A stretch of 53,805 nt of DNA from Bdellovibrionales bacterium (GCA_043764415.1 JAYUKO010000162.1:1-53805); one strand, 5' to 3'; counted from the stretch's first letter, positions 27,253-34,408 are shown. The notes: generated by a model not told the origin, from the sequence alone. Numbers and translations: made by a program.

Positions 27253-28137
27253 TTGCTCAGTCAGTTTTCGTTAAACCCAAACCTGAAGAACCCCTTCGTC
27301 GAGTACGATTTGACTCCCTCAGACATTTTGGCGCCGAGTCGAGATCTGATCGAAAGCTTACAAAATAACTTCGAAGACGGAAAAATTCTTGTCATTGAGG
27401 GGTTGGTTCCAGATTCGTTAGATTACTTTTTGGATCAACCGGCAGTGCAATTTCCCGAATGGGTTCCTCCGGTGGAAGACCACGAAATTTTAAACGACAA
27501 CATCAATGCGACCCACTCCTTTTGGCCGTTTTATCCTGATGAGCCAACGATTCGCCGTTTTCAGCATCACCTGCGGCGCTTCCAGGAGAGTTGGGAGCCG
27601 TTGCAAAAAAACCTGTTCCCTCGCTATGAATATAAAAAGCGCTACTGGAGCTGGCGTATGAATCAAATGGAACTGGGCTACCTTCATCTTGACGTACCAC
27701 CTGTGTATTCTGAGCACCAAATGCGAAGTTTTATGAATTTGAGTCGTAGACCGCGAATTATCGACGTGGGACCTACTTTAGAAAGTCTAATAGCAAAATA
27801 TTATGGCTCCGAAAAACTACATGAGCTAAGTCACCTTAATGCGACAGACTATTTACAGGAAATTAAGAACCGTCTCTTCAAAAAACTAAAGTTCGAGGAC
27901 CAACATCTGCCCCGTCATGTTTTGCGCCTCGCCCCGGGCGCTATTTGGATCAGCCATTCGTCTCTTATCACACACGGAATTGTCTACGGCGAGAAAACTG
28001 TCTGTCTAGAAACACGAATACCGACCGATCAAATTCGTAAAAAAGAACGCTCCTTTAACAGAATTTTAGAAGATGTTAAGCACCAACGAGCTTCGAAGAC
28101 CGAAGATTTTAAGGTGTATGAATCGTTTTTTCGTTAA
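27253..28137 (+). CDS. Fe(II)/2-oxoglutarate dioxygenase-like protein, possibly Kdo-hydroxylase (KdoO) family
   Basis: 294 aa. HxD in 'LGYLHLDVPP' and distal His in 'WISHSSLITHG'. Size and motif spacing fit a facial-triad dioxygenase. TTG start with AGGGGG 7 nt upstream. Confidence 0.4.
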   Translation: MLSQFSLNPNLKNPFVEYDLTPSDILAPSRDLIESLQNNFEDGKILVIEGLVPDSLDYFLDQPAVQFPEWVPPVEDHEILNDNINATHSFWPFYPDEPTIRRFQHHLRRFQESWEPLQKNLFPRYEYKKRYWSWRMNQMELGYLHLDVPPVYSEHQMRSFMNLSRRPRIIDVGPTLESLIAKYYGSEKLHELSHLNATDYLQEIKNRLFKKLKFEDQHLPRHVLRLAPGAIWISHSSLITHGIVYGEKTVCLETRIPTDQIRKKERSFNRILEDVKHQRASKTEDFKVYESFFR

Positions 28138-29374
28138 TTTGAAATAAAGGTGTCAGCTCGGGAACAACCTTGAGCAACGACGTCCCGCGCATTCTGTCGA
28201 GCTCCGTATTAAACTCGCAAAACTGCGAAACTAATAAAGACTTTTTTTCGGAGCTAAAAACTTCTTTTTTCAAACTCGCGCGAATCAACTGTTTTCCCGA
28301 GTCACCCAATAGGCGCCGACCAGAATGGTGGGGGCCCTCAAGGATTCTAGAATTTTCCAGTCTTTGCAGAGCGAGTTCTTTCATTCTCTGCGGTAAAATT
28401 TGAAAGTTAAGGTAAGCTGGACGTACAACAGCATTCGAAAAAGTGATTTCGTCGTGCGGCTGATAGACTTTTTCAAACCAGTCCCAGAGTTCATCAAGCT
28501 TAAATATATTATAAATGGAAACCGCCGCGGTAAACATCACAGTCAGTTGCGGAATTTTGCGAAACTGAAGCAAATTTCTCTCAAGCTCTTCGATTGAAAA
28601 TTTATCGCCGCCGCGGATGTAACGATAAAGCTCTCCCGCGCCGTCGACACTCACGTATAAGTCGATCTGTTTAAAGTGAGACATCAGCTTGAGCAACTGT
28701 GGAGAGACCATGGTGCCGTTGGTAGAGATATCCAAAATAACCTGTGGTGCGATCTGCCATTCCACAAGTTGCTCAAGCACCTTTATTCCTTCCGCTTCGA
28801 GCAAAGGTTCTCCTCCACGAAGGGCCACATACTGTAAATTCTTAAAAAGTTCACGATTGCTAAAGATTTTTAAAATACTTTGCAGCTCGATTTTTTCTGC
28901 TCGCAGACCCTCAGGTCTGTTGAGACGCGAGCCAAATTTTTGCACCAATTCTCGATCTTCGGCAAGCCACGACGTCGACGAAACCGAATTACACATGCGG
29001 CACTTTAAATTGCATTTATTTGAGAGATTTAGATCGAGGTATTGCAGATTTATCTCTCCATCATTTTTTTGTGGCAGTTCTAAATTAAATCTGCGAAGGG
29101 TGTGTTCGAAAAATATCCGTCGAGAATGGCCAAGGGTGCTTTCCTTGGTGGCGCAGTTCACGCAAGCTGTGGCAAATTTTTGCTGCTGCATTTCTGTGCG
29201 CAGGGTTCGAAATTCACCACCAGATAGAATTTCTTCAAGGGACTGGGTTAAAATATTGCCGTAAGATTTTGCGTACTGCGCATCTGGGCCCACATCACCA
29301 TTTGGTTTAACGGACAACGCAAGCCAGGGAGCTAAACAGGGGTGAGAGTTATGATCAAGAGGTGTAATCTTCAA
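28109..29374 (-). CDS. radical SAM protein, N-terminal twitch-like family (paralog 2, degenerate N-motif)
   Basis: 'PCLAPWLALSVKPNGDVGPDA' (CC replaced by DA), 'CVNC', 'CNLKCRMC' and 'LRGGEPLL'. The ORF-track start at 29470 would overlap the amidinotransferase by 116 nt, so I prefer TTG at 29374. The start remains uncertain. Confidence 0.8.
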   Translation of the reverse strand: MKITPLDHNSHPCLAPWLALSVKPNGDVGPDAQYAKSYGNILTQSLEEILSGGEFRTLRTEMQQQKFATACVNCATKESTLGHSRRIFFEHTLRRFNLELPQKNDGEINLQYLDLNLSNKCNLKCRMCNSVSSTSWLAEDRELVQKFGSRLNRPEGLRAEKIELQSILKIFSNRELFKNLQYVALRGGEPLLEAEGIKVLEQLVEWQIAPQVILDISTNGTMVSPQLLKLMSHFKQIDLYVSVDGAGELYRYIRGGDKFSIEELERNLLQFRKIPQLTVMFTAAVSIYNIFKLDELWDWFEKVYQPHDEITFSNAVVRPAYLNFQILPQRMKELALQRLENSRILEGPHHSGRRLLGDSGKQLIRASLKKEVFSSEKKSLLVSQFCEFNTELDRMRGTSLLKVVPELTPLFQINEKTIHTP

Positions 29375-30437
29375 GCCCCCCGGTGCGGCGAATGTCGAGC
29401 GTAACACAATGAATGGCACCATCCCAAAAATACTGATGACGAAAGTTCCAGGGAATGGCTTCGACTCCATGGTGTTTTAATTGGTCGAAAACAGTCTTGT
29501 TGTAGCCATTGGTGATGACACATTTTTCAGAAACACTAAACATATTTACATCAAAAACCGTTTCATCCACGTAACCGATCCATTCTTTAAGCCACTGTTG
29601 AACAAAGTCTTTGTAAAAGCGTTGTTTTTTAATCTTTTGAAAGTATTCAGGAAATGGATTGGGGCTGTTTACCTGAATGATGTCCCACTTGGAGAGGGCT
29701 GCTGGAATATGTTTTGGACTCCAAGTAATTACGAGGCCGGGTTTTAGGAGAGCAATCTTTCCGTCGAGATGACCCGCGCACGGCGCCGCATGAAAACGGT
29801 AAGTGTCTCCCAACTCTTGTTGCAGCCACTTGATTCCGCTGGAAGTGCCTTTTCCTTTTTCGCTCCACTCGCCTTCACCAGGTTGACTGTAAAAAATGTC
29901 TTTCCCACACTTCAAAAGATTCGCGGCATGAAATAGAATTTTTTTATCCTCGAAAAGATCATAAGTCTTTGGGTGTTCGGTAAAAAACGGGGCGGGCATG
30001 GACGTCCAGCGAGCACCTTGGTCAAAATACTCTTTAAAGAGAGAATAGTACGCCCAGTTTTCCAAATAGCGATTGGCGCTCTTTGTGTACGTTTGGATCA
30101 ATTGATTTCCGGCCACGACTACAGTGTCTCTCGGCATCAGCGGATGATTTGGAAAGGTAAAATTAAATAGGTTGAAATCCAGTGTTCTAGCTTCACCATT
30201 CGAGGTTCCCAATTCAAACAAGGTGGATGGGCGCCGAACTTTTACGCCAAAGCTCTCAAATAGCCCAACGAGCTTTTGTAGATCCTCTTCGGTTTCACTC
30301 AGAATGCGATCGATCCCATCACGCAACTCGCTATCGTGGGAGTAAGCAAAGGAACCGGGAGGATACGCTTGGCCGACGAGAACTTCCTCCAGCGGCTGAA
30401 ATTCCGAATAAGTGGAGACGGGGCAGTTCGCGATCAT
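29355..30437 (-). CDS. amidinotransferase (glycine / inosamine-phosphate amidinotransferase family)
   Basis: The N-terminus 'VSTYSEFQPLEEVLVGQAYP' parallels the 'NEWDPLEEVIVG' start of StrB1/AGAT. The C-terminus 'WDGAIHCVTLDIRRTG' carries the catalytic Cys motif. Confidence 0.85.
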   Translation of the reverse strand: MIANCPVSTYSEFQPLEEVLVGQAYPPGSFAYSHDSELRDGIDRILSETEEDLQKLVGLFESFGVKVRRPSTLFELGTSNGEARTLDFNLFNFTFPNHPLMPRDTVVVAGNQLIQTYTKSANRYLENWAYYSLFKEYFDQGARWTSMPAPFFTEHPKTYDLFEDKKILFHAANLLKCGKDIFYSQPGEGEWSEKGKGTSSGIKWLQQELGDTYRFHAAPCAGHLDGKIALLKPGLVITWSPKHIPAALSKWDIIQVNSPNPFPEYFQKIKKQRFYKDFVQQWLKEWIGYVDETVFDVNMFSVSEKCVITNGYNKTVFDQLKHHGVEAIPWNFRHQYFWDGAIHCVTLDIRRTGGLEDYTS

Positions 30438-30994
30438 GGTGAAAGCGCATTCGTTGCGGCGGGCCCAGTCAAGTAACGTTGGTAGTAATCCGCTCTTTTA
30501 CCAACCACCTCGTTATAATAATCGCGGGGCCAATGATCATAGTAGCCACGGGTTTTGAGCTCGTTGGATGCCGCAACAAGAACCGAAAGTCGCTGGATCA
30601 TAAAGATAAGAAACTGCCCATGATTCAACGAAAAACCATCGATGATCTCAGGGAGTGCAGGATGATCGTAAAGAGTCCAAAGATCCTGACTGTAATATTT
30701 TTCGCGCAAGTTCGAAACGATGATTTGCACATCAGTGGGGTTACAATTTTGCCAATCAGTCACAGCGAGAATAGATATTTCCGTTGTGCTGTCCTTATGA
30801 AAGTCGCGCAGCTGCTGGTTGAGGGCACCTTCGTAAGTTTGTGAAGAAACTTCGACAAGCTGAATTTTATTTTTTAAAAAAGCATCGCGCGCAAACGGGC
30901 AAGGAGGAATGTTACCTAGAAAAGAGACGGGTGAAGAAAGTTTTGTCTCAATCCAAATTCTGATAGAATTATTTAAATCCAAATCCGTCCCCAC
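30434..30994 (-). CDS. hypothetical protein (first gene of amidinotransferase operon)
   Basis: 186-aa ORF with a GTG start. 4-nt overlap with the amidinotransferase start. No recognisable motif ('NIPPCPFARDAF' noted). Confidence 0.45.
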   Translation of the reverse strand: MGTDLDLNNSIRIWIETKLSSPVSFLGNIPPCPFARDAFLKNKIQLVEVSSQTYEGALNQQLRDFHKDSTTEISILAVTDWQNCNPTDVQIIVSNLREKYYSQDLWTLYDHPALPEIIDGFSLNHGQFLIFMIQRLSVLVAASNELKTRGYYDHWPRDYYNEVVGKRADYYQRYLTGPAATNALSP

Positions 30995-31032
30995 CGGTTG
31001 AAAAGTAACAACAGTATGCTAATTTAAGTCCC

Positions 31033-31995
31033 ATGATAAGATCACCAGAACAACGCTTGACCTCGAGCGTTACTGAGCCACTCAACGAGCGCCTCCTTAC
31101 TAAAACAGGTAACGCTGTTTATAACGATGATGTTCGAGTGTTCCTCGGCAAAAATATTGCAAACTGGTTTTCCGACGAAGTGCAGTTTGGCTCCATGGTG
31201 GACACCGAGGGCTATATTTGCGAAATGAAGAAGTGGATTCGTTCAAGCCACGCGTGTTCTGTTCTTGGTCTTGAAGACTTTGAGGTGGCCTGCGTTAGTC
31301 TCGGCGTCACCCAAGCTCTGGATCAATTTCATTATGATATTTTACAAAGTGGGCGTCGCTTGCGCATGTTGCGAGGCGAGTACCCTTACCACCGTGATGT
31401 GCACCCATTCTGCATCGAAAAAGATTTTATTGATGATGCGCCTCTCACTCCAGGGGATGCGGTGATCATCAGTTATCCTTTCAGTGCCAGCGGAAACGAA
31501 CCACCGCGGCTCACTGAAACTCTTGATAGCTGTTTGCGTCTGCAGGTGCCGGTGTTTTTAGATCTGGCCTGGTTTGGAACCTGCGGTGGTCTGGTTTTCG
31601 ATTTGCGGCACCCGGCCATCACCCATGTCGCATTTTCGCTCACCAAAGGTCTGACCTGTGGCAACTATCGTTCAGGTGTTCGATGGACTCGAAAAAAAAC
31701 CGACCTTTCCGCCACAGATCGCTTATTGCTGCAACAGGATTGGAATCACAGCATTCATCTCAATTTAAAGATTGGCCGCGAGTTGATGAAAAAGTTTGGA
31801 CCAGATACCCAGTTTCATAAATATCGAACGGCGCAATTGAAAGTGTGCGAGCGTTTTTCCATAGAACCCAGCCCCTGTGTGCATATTGCCACATCCAAAG
31901 AGGAGCACTGGCGGGATTTTAGTCGCGATGGAGTGATTCAGCGAATTAATTTGCGCGACGCGATTAAGTTGCTGAATCGCACACAAGCTGAATAA
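31033..31995 (+). CDS. PLP-dependent aminotransferase-fold (class I/II-like) protein, short form
   Basis: Motifs in the order expected for fold-type I: 'ISYPFSASGNEP' (cf. NPxNPTG), 'VFLDLAWFG' (Asp) and 'SLTKGLTCGNYRSG' (cf. SxSKxxxxxGxRxG, PLP Lys). Only 320 aa. Confidence 0.45.
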   Translation: MIRSPEQRLTSSVTEPLNERLLTKTGNAVYNDDVRVFLGKNIANWFSDEVQFGSMVDTEGYICEMKKWIRSSHACSVLGLEDFEVACVSLGVTQALDQFHYDILQSGRRLRMLRGEYPYHRDVHPFCIEKDFIDDAPLTPGDAVIISYPFSASGNEPPRLTETLDSCLRLQVPVFLDLAWFGTCGGLVFDLRHPAITHVAFSLTKGLTCGNYRSGVRWTRKKTDLSATDRLLLQQDWNHSIHLNLKIGRELMKKFGPDTQFHKYRTAQLKVCERFSIEPSPCVHIATSKEEHWRDFSRDGVIQRINLRDAIKLLNRTQAE

Positions 31996-33192
31996 ATGAA
32001 AGCCATGCAGGTCACTCGTCAAACCAGCCCCACAATATGTCCGTTACCGTTTATGCATACTTACATCACGGCAAATGGTTCTGCTGTCGCCTGTTGTGAG
32101 TCCCAGGAAAGTATTTTATCGCCGTCAAAAAGCAACTTTCAGTCAATGTGGAACTCGCAGAATTATAAAAATTTGCGCCAAGCTCTTTTGCGCGGCGAAA
32201 AACCCGAACTGTGCCGTAAATGCTGGTCAAACGAAGAGATCGGAATGCCATCCAATCGAGAGGACATGTGGCGCGATCTAGAAACTGGTCTTTTTGGTGA
32301 TCCGAATCTCGCAGTGCACGAGGATTTTTTGGTGAGTGAAACTCCGGCGGCCATCGAAATCAAAACCAATAACCTCTGCAATTTGAAGTGCCGAATGTGC
32401 CATCCCGAAAGCAGTCATCGCGTGGGAGAAGATAAAGAAATCATTGTGAAGTACAGAAAAAACCTACCTTGGTCGCAAACAGTGTTGAGCTCCGGTCAAA
32501 CTGTGGGAGCTCTATTTTCTGAAGGGGATGCATTTTTCAAAAAGTTATCGGTGGTTCAATATTCGGGTGGTGAACCGCTCATCAGCGATGAGCAGCTCGA
32601 ATTGACACAAAAATTAATGCAATTTGAACCTGGGAAAATTCATTTGCGCTACTCAACAAATTTGACACATCTGAGTTATAAGAAAACAAGCTATCCAGAC
32701 ATCTGGAGGAATTTCAAAAAAGTACATGTAAAAGTGAGCATCGATGGCGTGAACGACGTCTACGACTATATTCGTGTTGGTGGTCATTTCGAAAAAGTTG
32801 TGGAAAATATTAAGCGACTGCAAGATTTTCAGCTACCAAACCTGCAGCTGAGTATTGGTTTTACGACTCAAGCGTACAACGTATTCCAGCTGCCAGAATT
32901 CCTCGAGTATTTCGAAAAGATAGTGCCGCGCAACTCGATCACCACCCATCTACTGCATTCACCCAAAATGATGATGGTGGATGTTTTTCCGCCAGCGATT
33001 CGAGAACGTCTGATCCACAAGCTCCAGAGCCGGAGAACCGACATCAACAACGTGATTGCCGTTCTACAAAAGTCTACATCAGAGGCGTCGTATTGGACCG
33101 CACTTTGTAATTATACCCAAGAATTGGAAACCAAATATTCGATCAGTTTCGGCTTCCGTTCTTTGCTCGACAAGTACTTAGCAGGTTATTGA
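31996..33192 (+). CDS. radical SAM protein, N-terminal twitch-like family (paralog 3)
   Basis: 'ICPLPFMHTYITANGSAVACC', 'CRKC', 'CNLKCRMC' and 'YSGGEPLI'. Starts immediately after the upstream stop (TAAATG). Confidence 0.85.
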   Translation: MKAMQVTRQTSPTICPLPFMHTYITANGSAVACCESQESILSPSKSNFQSMWNSQNYKNLRQALLRGEKPELCRKCWSNEEIGMPSNREDMWRDLETGLFGDPNLAVHEDFLVSETPAAIEIKTNNLCNLKCRMCHPESSHRVGEDKEIIVKYRKNLPWSQTVLSSGQTVGALFSEGDAFFKKLSVVQYSGGEPLISDEQLELTQKLMQFEPGKIHLRYSTNLTHLSYKKTSYPDIWRNFKKVHVKVSIDGVNDVYDYIRVGGHFEKVVENIKRLQDFQLPNLQLSIGFTTQAYNVFQLPEFLEYFEKIVPRNSITTHLLHSPKMMMVDVFPPAIRERLIHKLQSRRTDINNVIAVLQKSTSEASYWTALCNYTQELETKYSISFGFRSLLDKYLAGY

Positions 33193-33193
33193 C

Positions 33194-34408
33194 ATGTCGA
33201 AAAATTATTCCTGTCAGTATTTAGAAAAGTCTTTAACTCTCTTGCCCACTTCCGAGGTGCGTCCGTGCTGTCGTTTTGATGTGAGTCGCTATGATGTTAA
33301 AGATTTTACCTGGGATCATAAAACACCCCTCGAGGAATTTTACACAAGCGCGCAATACAAAATGATTCGACAACAAAGCCGAAGCGGCCTGCCCGTGGCC
33401 GGTTGCCATCGTTGCTACCGCGAGGAGGATTTAGGTATCAAAAGCATGCGGCAAAAAGATTTTCCTGGGGATGCCGCGAGTTGCGATGATGAAACCCTAA
33501 AAATTTCTATGATCGAGCTCGGTGTGGGTCGCATTTGTAATTTAAAATGTCGAACCTGTGATCCTTACTTTAGTACAAAGTGGGAGACCGATGCTTTGAT
33601 TGCCAACAAGCCAATCCCCGATAAGGGATTGGATGTGGATCTCGATGCGCTGGACGTGCAATTTTTTCGAAATACTCGATTTTTGAAGATCACTGGCGGT
33701 GAGCCTTTTTATCATTCGGCCTTTGAAACGTTAATTCATCGCCTGGTTCAAGAGGGACTTTCCGCAAACATTGACATCGAAATATTCAGCAACGCGACGA
33801 AATTACCGGACGAGGTGTTTGTCGAAGCCTTAAAAGGTTTTCGCACAGTAACGATGACTCTCAGCATCGATGGTTTAGGAGCTACGAATACGTATCTTCG
33901 CCATCCGAGTCGGTGGAAGGATATCGAAAAGAGCGTCGATTTTTGGCTGGGTCTCAGGGCAAGCCAGATAGCACTCAAAGTCCAATTTGCGGTCACGGTT
34001 TCGGTATTTAATATTTTAAGTCTCTTCGATTTATTAGATTGGCTCTACAAGCTCGAAACAAACGAACCTGGAATTATTATTCAAAATGTGCAGGACCCAA
34101 CTCACTTAAATGTGTCTCATTGGCCGTTGCAAATTCGACAAGCTATTCAGTCGAAATTTTTACAGCAAAAAGAAGCCTTCTTGGAGACTCATGTTGTAAA
34201 TACAACGCTTGTTAAAAGGATCGGGAACATCGAAAAAATGCTAGACTCTGTTATCGAACAAAAAGACGTGAGCGAACAGTTTTGGCGAGAAACCCTTGCA
34301 TTAGATAAAGCCAGGAACGAAACCTTTTCTAAGGTATTCCCAGAGCTTTTTCAAATTGTCTCGAGCTCGCTAAATAAAGAGTTCACCGAGTTCCGGAGCG
34401 GCATTTAA
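33194..34408 (+). CDS. radical SAM protein, N-terminal twitch-like family (paralog 4)
   Basis: 'SCQYLEKSLTLLPTSEVRPCC', 'CHRC', 'CNLKCRTC' and 'ITGGEPFY'. Confidence 0.85.
   Translation: MSKNYSCQYLEKSLTLLPTSEVRPCCRFDVSRYDVKDFTWDHKTPLEEFYTSAQYKMIRQQSRSGLPVAGCHRCYREEDLGIKSMRQKDFPGDAASCDDETLKISMIELGVGRICNLKCRTCDPYFSTKWETDALIANKPIPDKGLDVDLDALDVQFFRNTRFLKITGGEPFYHSAFETLIHRLVQEGLSANIDIEIFSNATKLPDEVFVEALKGFRTVTMTLSIDGLGATNTYLRHPSRWKDIEKSVDFWLGLRASQIALKVQFAVTVSVFNILSLFDLLDWLYKLETNEPGIIIQNVQDPTHLNVSHWPLQIRQAIQSKFLQQKEAFLETHVVNTTLVKRIGNIEKMLDSVIEQKDVSEQFWRETLALDKARNETFSKVFPELFQIVSSSLNKEFTEFRSGI

Follow-up and report, generated by a model that had tools for sequence, protein, structure and literature searches.

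What does a gene for an amidinotransferase-like enzyme do within an island rich in radical S-adenosylmethionine (SAM) genes in a Bdellovibrionales bacterium? The question is raised by a stretch of DNA of 53,805 nucleotides (GCA_043764415.1 JAYUKO010000162.1:1-53805), referred to below as the window, in which an open reading frame (ORF) at positions 29355-30437 of the minus strand encodes the protein that we call AT. Amidinotransferases are known from a handful of pathways, namely those of creatine, streptomycin, saxitoxin, cylindrospermopsin and phaseolotoxin, and an earlier note on this DNA had described AT as an amidinotransferase of the StrB1/AGAT type. Our sequence comparisons place AT on the amidinotransferase side of the pentein superfamily, as a member of a sister clade to the AGAT, StrB1, SxtG and HsvA enzymes that is mostly phage-borne. 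The genes around it form a module of phages and Bdellovibrionota, mainly phage-borne, which was not recognized in that note.

The ORF is real. Its product begins with MIANCPVSTYSEFQPLEEV, residues 1-6 being MIANCP, and ends with WDGAIHCVTLDIRRTGGLEDYTS; the start that was first quoted for it corresponds to residue 7, and the quoted end lies 7 residues short of the C-terminus. The ratio of nonsynonymous to synonymous substitution rates (dN/dS) is 0.04 in comparison with the ortholog in another Bdellovibrionales metagenome-assembled genome (MAG; locus L002, 92% amino-acid identity), and the gene is under strong purifying selection. When AT was searched against the PDB with phmmer, StrB1 (2.6e-35), SxtG (1.6e-32), AGAT (5e-25) and HsvA (9e-25) were matched over nearly the full length. 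E-values for AGAT-family structures extend to 1e-23 with the single sequence and range from 9e-43 to 3e-33 with a 30-member profile. These matches are far above chance and only AGAT-family structures are found among them, which upholds the assignment to the amidinotransferase family. No structure of an arginine deiminase (ADI), dimethylarginine dimethylaminohydrolase (DDAH), agmatine deiminase or peptidylarginine deiminase (PAD) was matched at E<=10. AT matches no Pfam or NCBIfam model, PF02274 being absent even at E<=10, and the Joint Genome Institute (JGI) names its relatives either N-dimethylarginine dimethylaminohydrolase or glycine amidinotransferase. Of the two motifs on which the original family call was based, the N-terminal one is confirmed by its alignment with NEWDPLEEVIVG of StrB1; the other, given as G-x-H-C-x-T around the catalytic Cys, has to be amended to G-x-x-H-C-x-T, because AT reads G-A-I-H-C-V-T. 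The C-terminal IHCVTLDIRR of AT aligns with FHCATLDVRR of StrB1.

Alignment with the solved enzymes indicates which catalytic residues are kept. Asp104 (P-R-D) aligns with the guanidinium-binding Asp170 of AGAT, His223 and Asp225 (G-H-L-D-G) align with AGAT His303 and Asp305, and Cys344 (I-H-C-V-T) occupies the nucleophile column of AGAT Cys407. His170 (F-H-A-A-N) stands in the column of AGAT Asp254 and StrB1 Asp179, which reads F-D-A-A-[ND] in all four solved enzymes; the StrB1 position was checked by counting the numbering along the printed alignment. The earlier note had said that the absence of a Cys/His/Asp triad would refute its call, and this applies in part. Cys344 and His223 are present, and both are invariant in an alignment of 30 relatives with 42-78% identity; the triad Asp is replaced by His170, which is invariant in the same alignment. 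An Asp/His/Cys triad is conserved in AGAT, CyrA, AoaA, Amt1 and StrB1 (PMC3684758), and Asp occupies the triad column in all eight annotated cellular amidinotransferases that we fetched from plasmids. D104, H223, D225 and C344 are present in all but two of 87 fetched homologs and in about 132 of the 138 nearest representatives of 50%-identity clusters. At position 170 the same 138 representatives have D (40), H (15), S (14), N (13), E (11) and many other residues. Because the four residues are near-universal and position 170 is plastic, the nucleophile machinery and the guanidinium pocket are constrained and the classical third residue is not.

In order to place AT among known amidinotransferases we built a tree of 94 sequences (IQ-TREE quick search, LG+G4). 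The set consists of 86 fetched homologs, including gp086 of Campylobacter phage CP220 and ORF309 of cyanophage S-SCSM2R, and eight annotated amidinotransferases (plasmid annotations), among which are a StrB1-like protein, glycine-amidinotransferase-like proteins of Streptomyces, Planktothrix and Dolichospermum, a Pantoea "amidinotransferase" and others. The tree has long branches and its deep topology is provisional; it is divided by a branch with support of 100 in the Shimodaira-Hasegawa-like approximate likelihood ratio test (SH-aLRT) into a canonical clade of 12 sequences and a clade of 82 that contains AT. The canonical clade is made up of the eight references, CP220 gp086, S-SCSM2R ORF309 and two viral sequences, all of which have the Asp. 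In the clade of AT, position 170 is H in 64 sequences, N in 8, S in 5, D in 3 and E in 2, and the characteristic motifs are GKGT at 195-198, an insert of about 30 residues around W286, E292 and D296, and R-H-Q-x-F-W-D before the Cys. AT is thus neither of the StrB1 nor of the AGAT type phylogenetically, and the type that had been named for it has to be given up, since the protein lies outside the clade of all sampled annotated amidinotransferases and has His170 for the triad Asp.

The distribution of the clade is dominated by viruses. In a scan of one genome per prokaryotic species it is found essentially only in about ten Bdellovibrionota MAGs and a few short MAG contigs, and in the viral collection at least 583 AT-clade matches were confirmed among the matches listed. 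The wider AT radiation comprises about 1,000 clusters at 50% identity. Several of the contigs are clearly those of phages, among them L060, which encodes a T4-type large terminase, gp32 and a RecA/UvsX-like recombinase, and L088, which encodes DnaB and a primase. An IMG/VR "viral" contig with the cassette (L018:2709-4772) also encodes a full-length elongation factor G (EF-G), so some matches in the viral collection may be cellular fragments. In PHROGs, both AT and its neighbor of 186 amino acids fall into families of unknown function. No close AT homolog was found in 400 other genomes of the phylum of the window, which include nine genomes of the same family (>=96% completeness); AT relatives of 33-38% identity are present in 11 of the 400. 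AT is the sole copy found in its source genome (81% complete). The single copy and the lack of close homologs in the nine same-family genomes fit an accessory, horizontally moving island (window 19706-51162). Within the AT tree, Bdellovibrionota sequences are found at three or more places among the viral ones. We also observed two to three diverged AT paralogs per phage locus (L094, L029, L031, L032, L036, L055, L056 and L059), and paralogs within one phage locus sometimes differ at the triad position (H together with S, D or N). In this respect AT resembles the radical SAM genes, as a paralogous tailoring set.

The genes with which AT is found in the window are listed below with the evidence for each.

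29355..30437, minus strand: AT, amidinotransferase-like pentein enzyme of 360 amino acids (phmmer and profile matches in the PDB, alignment, residue table, tree, dN/dS)
30434..30994, minus strand: U186, 186 amino acids, probable miniature thiolate-heme oxygenase (AlphaFold 2 (AF2) model, VIA-align, weak Pfam matches, synteny)
28109..29374, minus strand: Tw28, radical SAM protein with N-terminal twitch domain (NF033640; Pfam Radical_SAM and SPASM; longest ORF to 29470)
31033..31995, plus strand: P320, 320 amino acids, aminotransferase-like enzyme of pyridoxal 5'-phosphate (PLP) fold type I (AF2 model, Foldseek, profile search of the PDB, synteny)
27253..28137, plus strand: KdoO-family-like Fe/2-oxoglutarate (2OG) dioxygenase (Pfam PF11004, 34 bits against a cut-off of 25)
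31996-33192 and 33194-34408, plus strand: two more N-twitch radical SAM genes, directly after P320 (NF033640, 287 and 252 bits)

We examined the genomic neighborhoods of AT by calling ORFs in 96 AT-seeded loci and labeling them by their best BLAST hits to genes of the window; these calls are crude and the radical SAM genes are paralogous. The common order in phages is AT, an N-twitch radical SAM gene (the Tw28 ortholog), P320 and two further N-twitch radical SAM genes, and the order P320, Tw33, Tw31 recurs in phage loci. Of the 96 loci, 42 contain P320 and 33 a Tw28-type radical SAM gene, which in about 30 immediately follows AT or lies one gene further on. The KdoO-like gene, found in 22, is directly upstream of AT in many phage cassettes, and U186 is found in 23. 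In the reciprocal test, AT lies within 5 kb of P320 in 33 of 66 viral P320-seeded loci, and in these 66 loci the gene just before P320 is nearly always an N-twitch radical SAM gene. All six loci seeded on one narrow U186 subclade have the order U186, AT, radical SAM gene. In the window this block of three genes is inverted relative to P320, which therefore appears as a divergent neighbor.

The layout of the genes in the window agrees with the tight coupling that had been described for AT: its start overlaps the stop of U186 by 4 nt, as ATGA, and the gene overlaps the downstream radical SAM gene, by 116 nt if the first ATG of Tw28 (29470) is used and by 20 nt from the TTG at 29374. The match of Tw28 to NF033640 (256 bits against a cut-off of 170) begins only at residue 44 of the longest ORF, and an overlap of 20 nt resembles the short overlaps of homologous loci; the TTG at 29374 is the likely start. 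The CxxxCxxC motif of Tw28 reads CNLKCRMC in translation. The starts of U186 (GTG, 30994) and P320 (ATG, 31033) are divergent and only 38 bp apart (30995-31032); any promoters must lie within the coding regions, or the starts are mis-set. Tw28 and the KdoO-like gene converge, with a 3' overlap of 29 nt (28109-28137) that leaves no space for a terminator between the two. Between the window and L002, P320 (L002:6443-7405) has 92% DNA identity and a synonymous divergence (dS) of 0.23; U186, AT, the radical SAM gene and the KdoO-like gene have 77-85% identity and a dS of about 1 or more. The low dS of P320 beside neighbors with high dS suggests a recent exchange or conversion of P320 alone.

The divergent gene had been described as PLP-fold and as a possible source of the acceptor amine for AT. 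The AF2 model of P320 (pLDDT 87) retrieved CobD, HisC and tyrosine (TyrAT) and other aromatic aminotransferases in Foldseek, with E-values from 5e-9 to 1e-7 and a probability of 1.00. In an alignment with an aromatic aminotransferase, the invariant Asp177, Ser202-x-x-Lys205 and Arg213 correspond to D-x-A-Y, S-x-S-K and Arg, and in the profile match in the PDB the D-x-A-W and S-x-x-K motifs likewise fall on those of an aromatic aminotransferase. P320 matches no Pfam or NCBIfam model. With its Asp/Lys/Arg set intact, P320 qualifies as a fold-type-I PLP enzyme, and its recurrence as a conserved syntenic PLP partner adds weight to the proposal that the acceptor amine comes from P320. Other aminotransferases occur next to AT relatives as well. 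In L088:1819-3992, beside replication genes (DnaB, primase), a class-III aminotransferase (Aminotran_3, 9e-33) precedes an AT of the His170 type, with a 4-nt overlap with the AT start. L093 and L095 have the two genes in the same order, which amounts to a minimal two-gene module. The S-SCSM2R cluster holds an AHBA_syn/DegT-type gene (PMC12801897). Because these aminotransferases are not homologous to P320, the idea of amine supply does not depend on P320 alone.

For U186, left as an unknown protein in the earlier note, we tentatively propose that it is thiolate-heme oxygenase-like. Its AF2 model (pLDDT 87) is a sandwich with a four-stranded sheet and five helices. When it was compared with 48,161 chains by VIA-align, the top match was AglA (9ub3; Z 7.0, root-mean-square deviation 4.3, 157 of 186 residues), at 1.7 Z above the next match, although the tool itself describes a Z below 8 as middling. 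AglA, the prototype of the YqcI/YcgG guanidine N-hydroxylases, has sandwich topology and Cys44 as the heme thiolate (PMC12866846). Cys32 of U186 (P-C-P-F-A; Cys32-Pro33-x-Ala35) is invariant in 34 members of the family and lies before helix 2 at about the position of AglA Cys44, as estimated from the offset of the VIA range (model residue 2 to chain residue 15). Weak Pfam matches within the family are to DUF6875 (15 of 34 members, best 3.5e-4), DUF1415 (10 of 34, best 2.8e-5) and YqcI_YcgG (1 of 34, 0.17), and Atlas neighbors of U186 carry DUF6875/DUF1415. DUF6875 has been reported to be the family of thiolate-heme "cytochrome P422" proteins, with a four-stranded sandwich-like arrangement (bioRxiv 10.64898/2025.12.11.692455). 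None of the Pfam matches reaches its gathering threshold, the window protein scoring about 12 bits against cut-offs of 26-27. A Foldseek search of the PDB gave nothing significant, a profile search of the PDB gave chance-level matches only, and a profile search of 5.8 billion proteins gave 71 clusters, none with a Pfam domain. U186 is about 60 residues shorter than AglA, and features such as the loops that gate the substrate in AglA are therefore probably missing. Each line is weak, but taken together they make it probable that U186 is a small thiolate-heme oxygenase. In CP220, gp085, a small gene that precedes the amidinotransferase gene, was considered as a U186 homolog and rejected, because the two are not homologous.

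The function that we favor, tentatively, for this set of genes is one in which AT would be a guanidino-group-transferring enzyme of the amidinotransferase fold, working in a radical SAM/PLP/heme-like module that would convert an alcohol to a ketone, an amine and finally an (N-hydroxy)guanidine. By analogy, the N-twitch radical SAM enzyme would oxidize an alcohol to a carbonyl, and P320 would transaminate the carbonyl to the acceptor amine, following the logic of BtrN/BtrS, StsC/StrB1 and KdnB/KdnA. Cys344 of AT would attack a guanidino donor, most simply arginine, to give a covalent S-amidino intermediate, with His223 as acid/base backed by His170 in place of Asp, and the amidino group would then be passed from Cys344 to the primary amine. 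U186 could then carry out an oxidation, on the product or on the donor, such as N-hydroxylation of the guanidine. Candidate scaffolds are a sugar or an ulosonic acid, a cyclitol and a peptide, and the module would be part of a mobile tailoring cassette common to large phages and some Bdellovibrionota. The chemistry proposed for the module is plausible.

For the scaffold, a sugar of the type of 3-deoxy-D-manno-oct-2-ulosonic acid (Kdo) is a lead only, and comes from the KdoO-like neighbor and from ORF266 of S-SCSM2R. This ORF (L184:3854-4747), which shares the sister clade with AT, has Cys at the triad position; it adjoins kdsA and kdsB, and a GT24 gene and genes for 2OG oxygenases are close by. 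Homologs of KdsA, KdsB, the GT24 protein and the 2OG oxygenases flanking ORF266 were found neither in about 160 fetched loci nor in the window.

Several points weigh against the transfer function and the module built around it. The AT clade has no member whose activity, donor, acceptor or product is known. The triad Asp is His here and almost any residue in the wider radiation, and the reaction may therefore depart from classical amidino transfer. The use of the radical SAM enzyme as a dehydrogenase is pure analogy; a PDB sequence search with it gave a single, uncharacterized match. P320 is missing from over half of the AT loci and its tightest partner is the radical SAM gene, not AT; U186 accompanies AT in only the 23 loci mentioned above. 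The link of U186 to heme depends on weak scores, namely a Z of 7.0 and Pfam matches below cut-off, and the U186 alignment shows no invariant equivalents of the basic residues with which AglA binds the heme propionates. Finally, in the core cassettes sampled we found neither a glycosyltransferase nor a scaffold gene, and Pfam searches with ten recurrent unlabeled neighbors returned DUF6071, EF-G, a DNA methylase and an aldehyde dehydrogenase, with no clue to a scaffold.

In a second explanation, AT would be a guanidino-group hydrolase (a deiminase, an amidinohydrolase or a DDAH-like enzyme) and water would resolve the Cys344 thiouronium, so that a guanidino group is removed or converted. The core of Cys, His and two Asp residues is common to all pentein enzymes, hydrolases included; the residue that marks the classical amidinotransferase triad is changed in AT; and many AT relatives carry the JGI label of a DDAH. 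However, this label is probably a generic automatic name, and glycine amidinotransferase labels occur in the same list. The clade of AT is sister to the amidinotransferases, the searches described above matched neither a hydrolase structure nor PF02274, and the repeated pairing with aminotransferases fits consumption of an amine better than hydrolysis. Because only transferase structures were matched and because of this pairing, we consider a hydrolase unlikely.

It is similarly unlikely, in our judgment, that AT modifies a peptide or protein, either by amidinating Lys or Orn or by acting on Arg, with a ribosomal peptide or the surface proteins of a phage or predator as the substrate. The cassette would then resemble those for ribosomally synthesized and post-translationally modified peptides. 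Consistent with this, the island is rich in SPASM/twitch radical SAM genes and in dioxygenases of the Asp/Asn-beta-hydroxylase type, which are typical of peptide modification, and a gene for an M16 (PqqF-like) peptidase is nearby. S-SCSM2R ORF266 was also detected, alongside a prolyl-hydroxylase-like protein, in the proteome of purified virions, but the authors of that study themselves suggest carry-over of abundant proteins (PMC12801897). PLP aminotransferases and KdoO-like or glycosyltransferase neighbors in related phages point instead to sugar-like substrates. The detection of ORF266 in virions is the only protein-level datum for the AT clade.

That AT is an ortholog of the StrB1/AGAT type which makes a classical guanidino metabolite (an aminocyclitol, guanidinoacetate or a precursor like those of saxitoxin and cylindrospermopsin) is highly improbable: StrB1 is its best single PDB match, but AT falls outside the canonical clade and has lost the triad Asp, its identity to annotated amidinotransferases is only 24-32%, the insert of its clade has no counterpart in solved enzymes, and no inositol, polyketide synthase or other scaffold gene was found in the scanned parts of the window.

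Amidino transfer within the module is the explanation that we tentatively prefer. The large sister clade keeps the nucleophile machinery while its third triad residue is freely replaced, and it has no member of known function. From its recurring partners a four-enzyme hypothesis, open to test, can be drawn up for a single step of the long-puzzling cassettes, rich in radical SAM genes, of large phages such as the CP220-type Campylobacter phages and marine T4-like phages, and the same cassette is found in predatory bacteria. Tentative annotations can also be offered for three families without functional annotation (phrog_25854, phrog_28122 and the P320 family). A bolder proposal is that the four genes for U186, AT, the radical SAM enzyme and P320 might be a self-contained mobile pathway, by which large phages and predatory Bdellovibrionota would attach an (N-hydroxy)guanidino group either to a glycan of the surface (a Kdo-type sugar, perhaps) or to a protein used against Gram-negative cells. 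We hold this to be a speculation with little chance of being correct; if true, it would mean a new class of phage-encoded chemistry and a new catalytic variant of the amidinotransferase fold.

In comparison with known systems, AT shares with StrB1 (PDB 1BWD), AGAT, SxtG and HsvA the fold, an alignment over the full length and the N-terminal E-[WF]-x-P-L-E-E-V, as well as the Cys in H-C-x-T-x-D-x-R-R, the His-x-Asp pair (GHLDG in AT, H-[IV]-D in the StrB1/AGAT family) and the Asp of P-R-D. It differs from them in having FHAAN for FDAA[ND], in belonging to a separate clade and in its low identity. Features of the AT clade that StrB1 and AGAT do not have are the GKGT at 195-198, the insert of about 30 residues, "RFYKDFV..WL.EWIGYVDETVFDVN", and the "FRHQYFWDG" before the Cys, to which can be added the phage-dominated distribution and, for AT, the lack of a Pfam or NCBIfam match.

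The order of reactions proposed for the module has counterparts in better known pathways. In BtrN/BtrS and StsC/StrB1 an oxidizing enzyme is followed by a PLP aminotransferase, and the streptomycin route proceeds by oxidation, transamination and amidination. In KdnB/KdnA an oxidase and an aminotransferase act on Kdo to give Kdo8N (Gattis 2013, as listed in PMC5125639). These systems and the window have in common the gene-level logic from C-OH to C-NH2 (and on to a guanidine in streptomycin). They differ in that there is no orthology between them, the auxiliary-cluster domain of the radical SAM proteins of the window is N-terminal, and P320 belongs to a short, unannotated family.

The closest parallels to the cassette as a whole come from phages. 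The Campylobacter phages CP220 and CPt10 carry several radical SAM genes and a "possible glycine amidinotransferase" (Timms 2010, PMC2853527), and in cyanophage S-SCSM2R an aminotransferase, a radical SAM protein and an amidinotransferase were listed in 2025 as "antibiotic synthesis genes" (PMC12801897); in both cases these are annotations, and function was tested in neither. Like the window, these phages have phage-type cassettes in which multiple radical SAM genes are combined with an amidinotransferase homolog, dioxygenases and an aminotransferase. In contrast to AT, CP220 gp086 and S-SCSM2R ORF309 keep the triad Asp and belong to the canonical clade, and the cassettes of CP220/CPt10 and S-SCSM2R hold glycosyltransferases, none of which was seen in the core cassettes here. 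What goes beyond the papers that we read is a separate clade with a replaced triad residue, the viral dominance of that clade together with its presence in Bdellovibrionota islands, the conserved order of AT, radical SAM gene and PLP enzyme gene, and a tentative identity for the partner of 186 amino acids.

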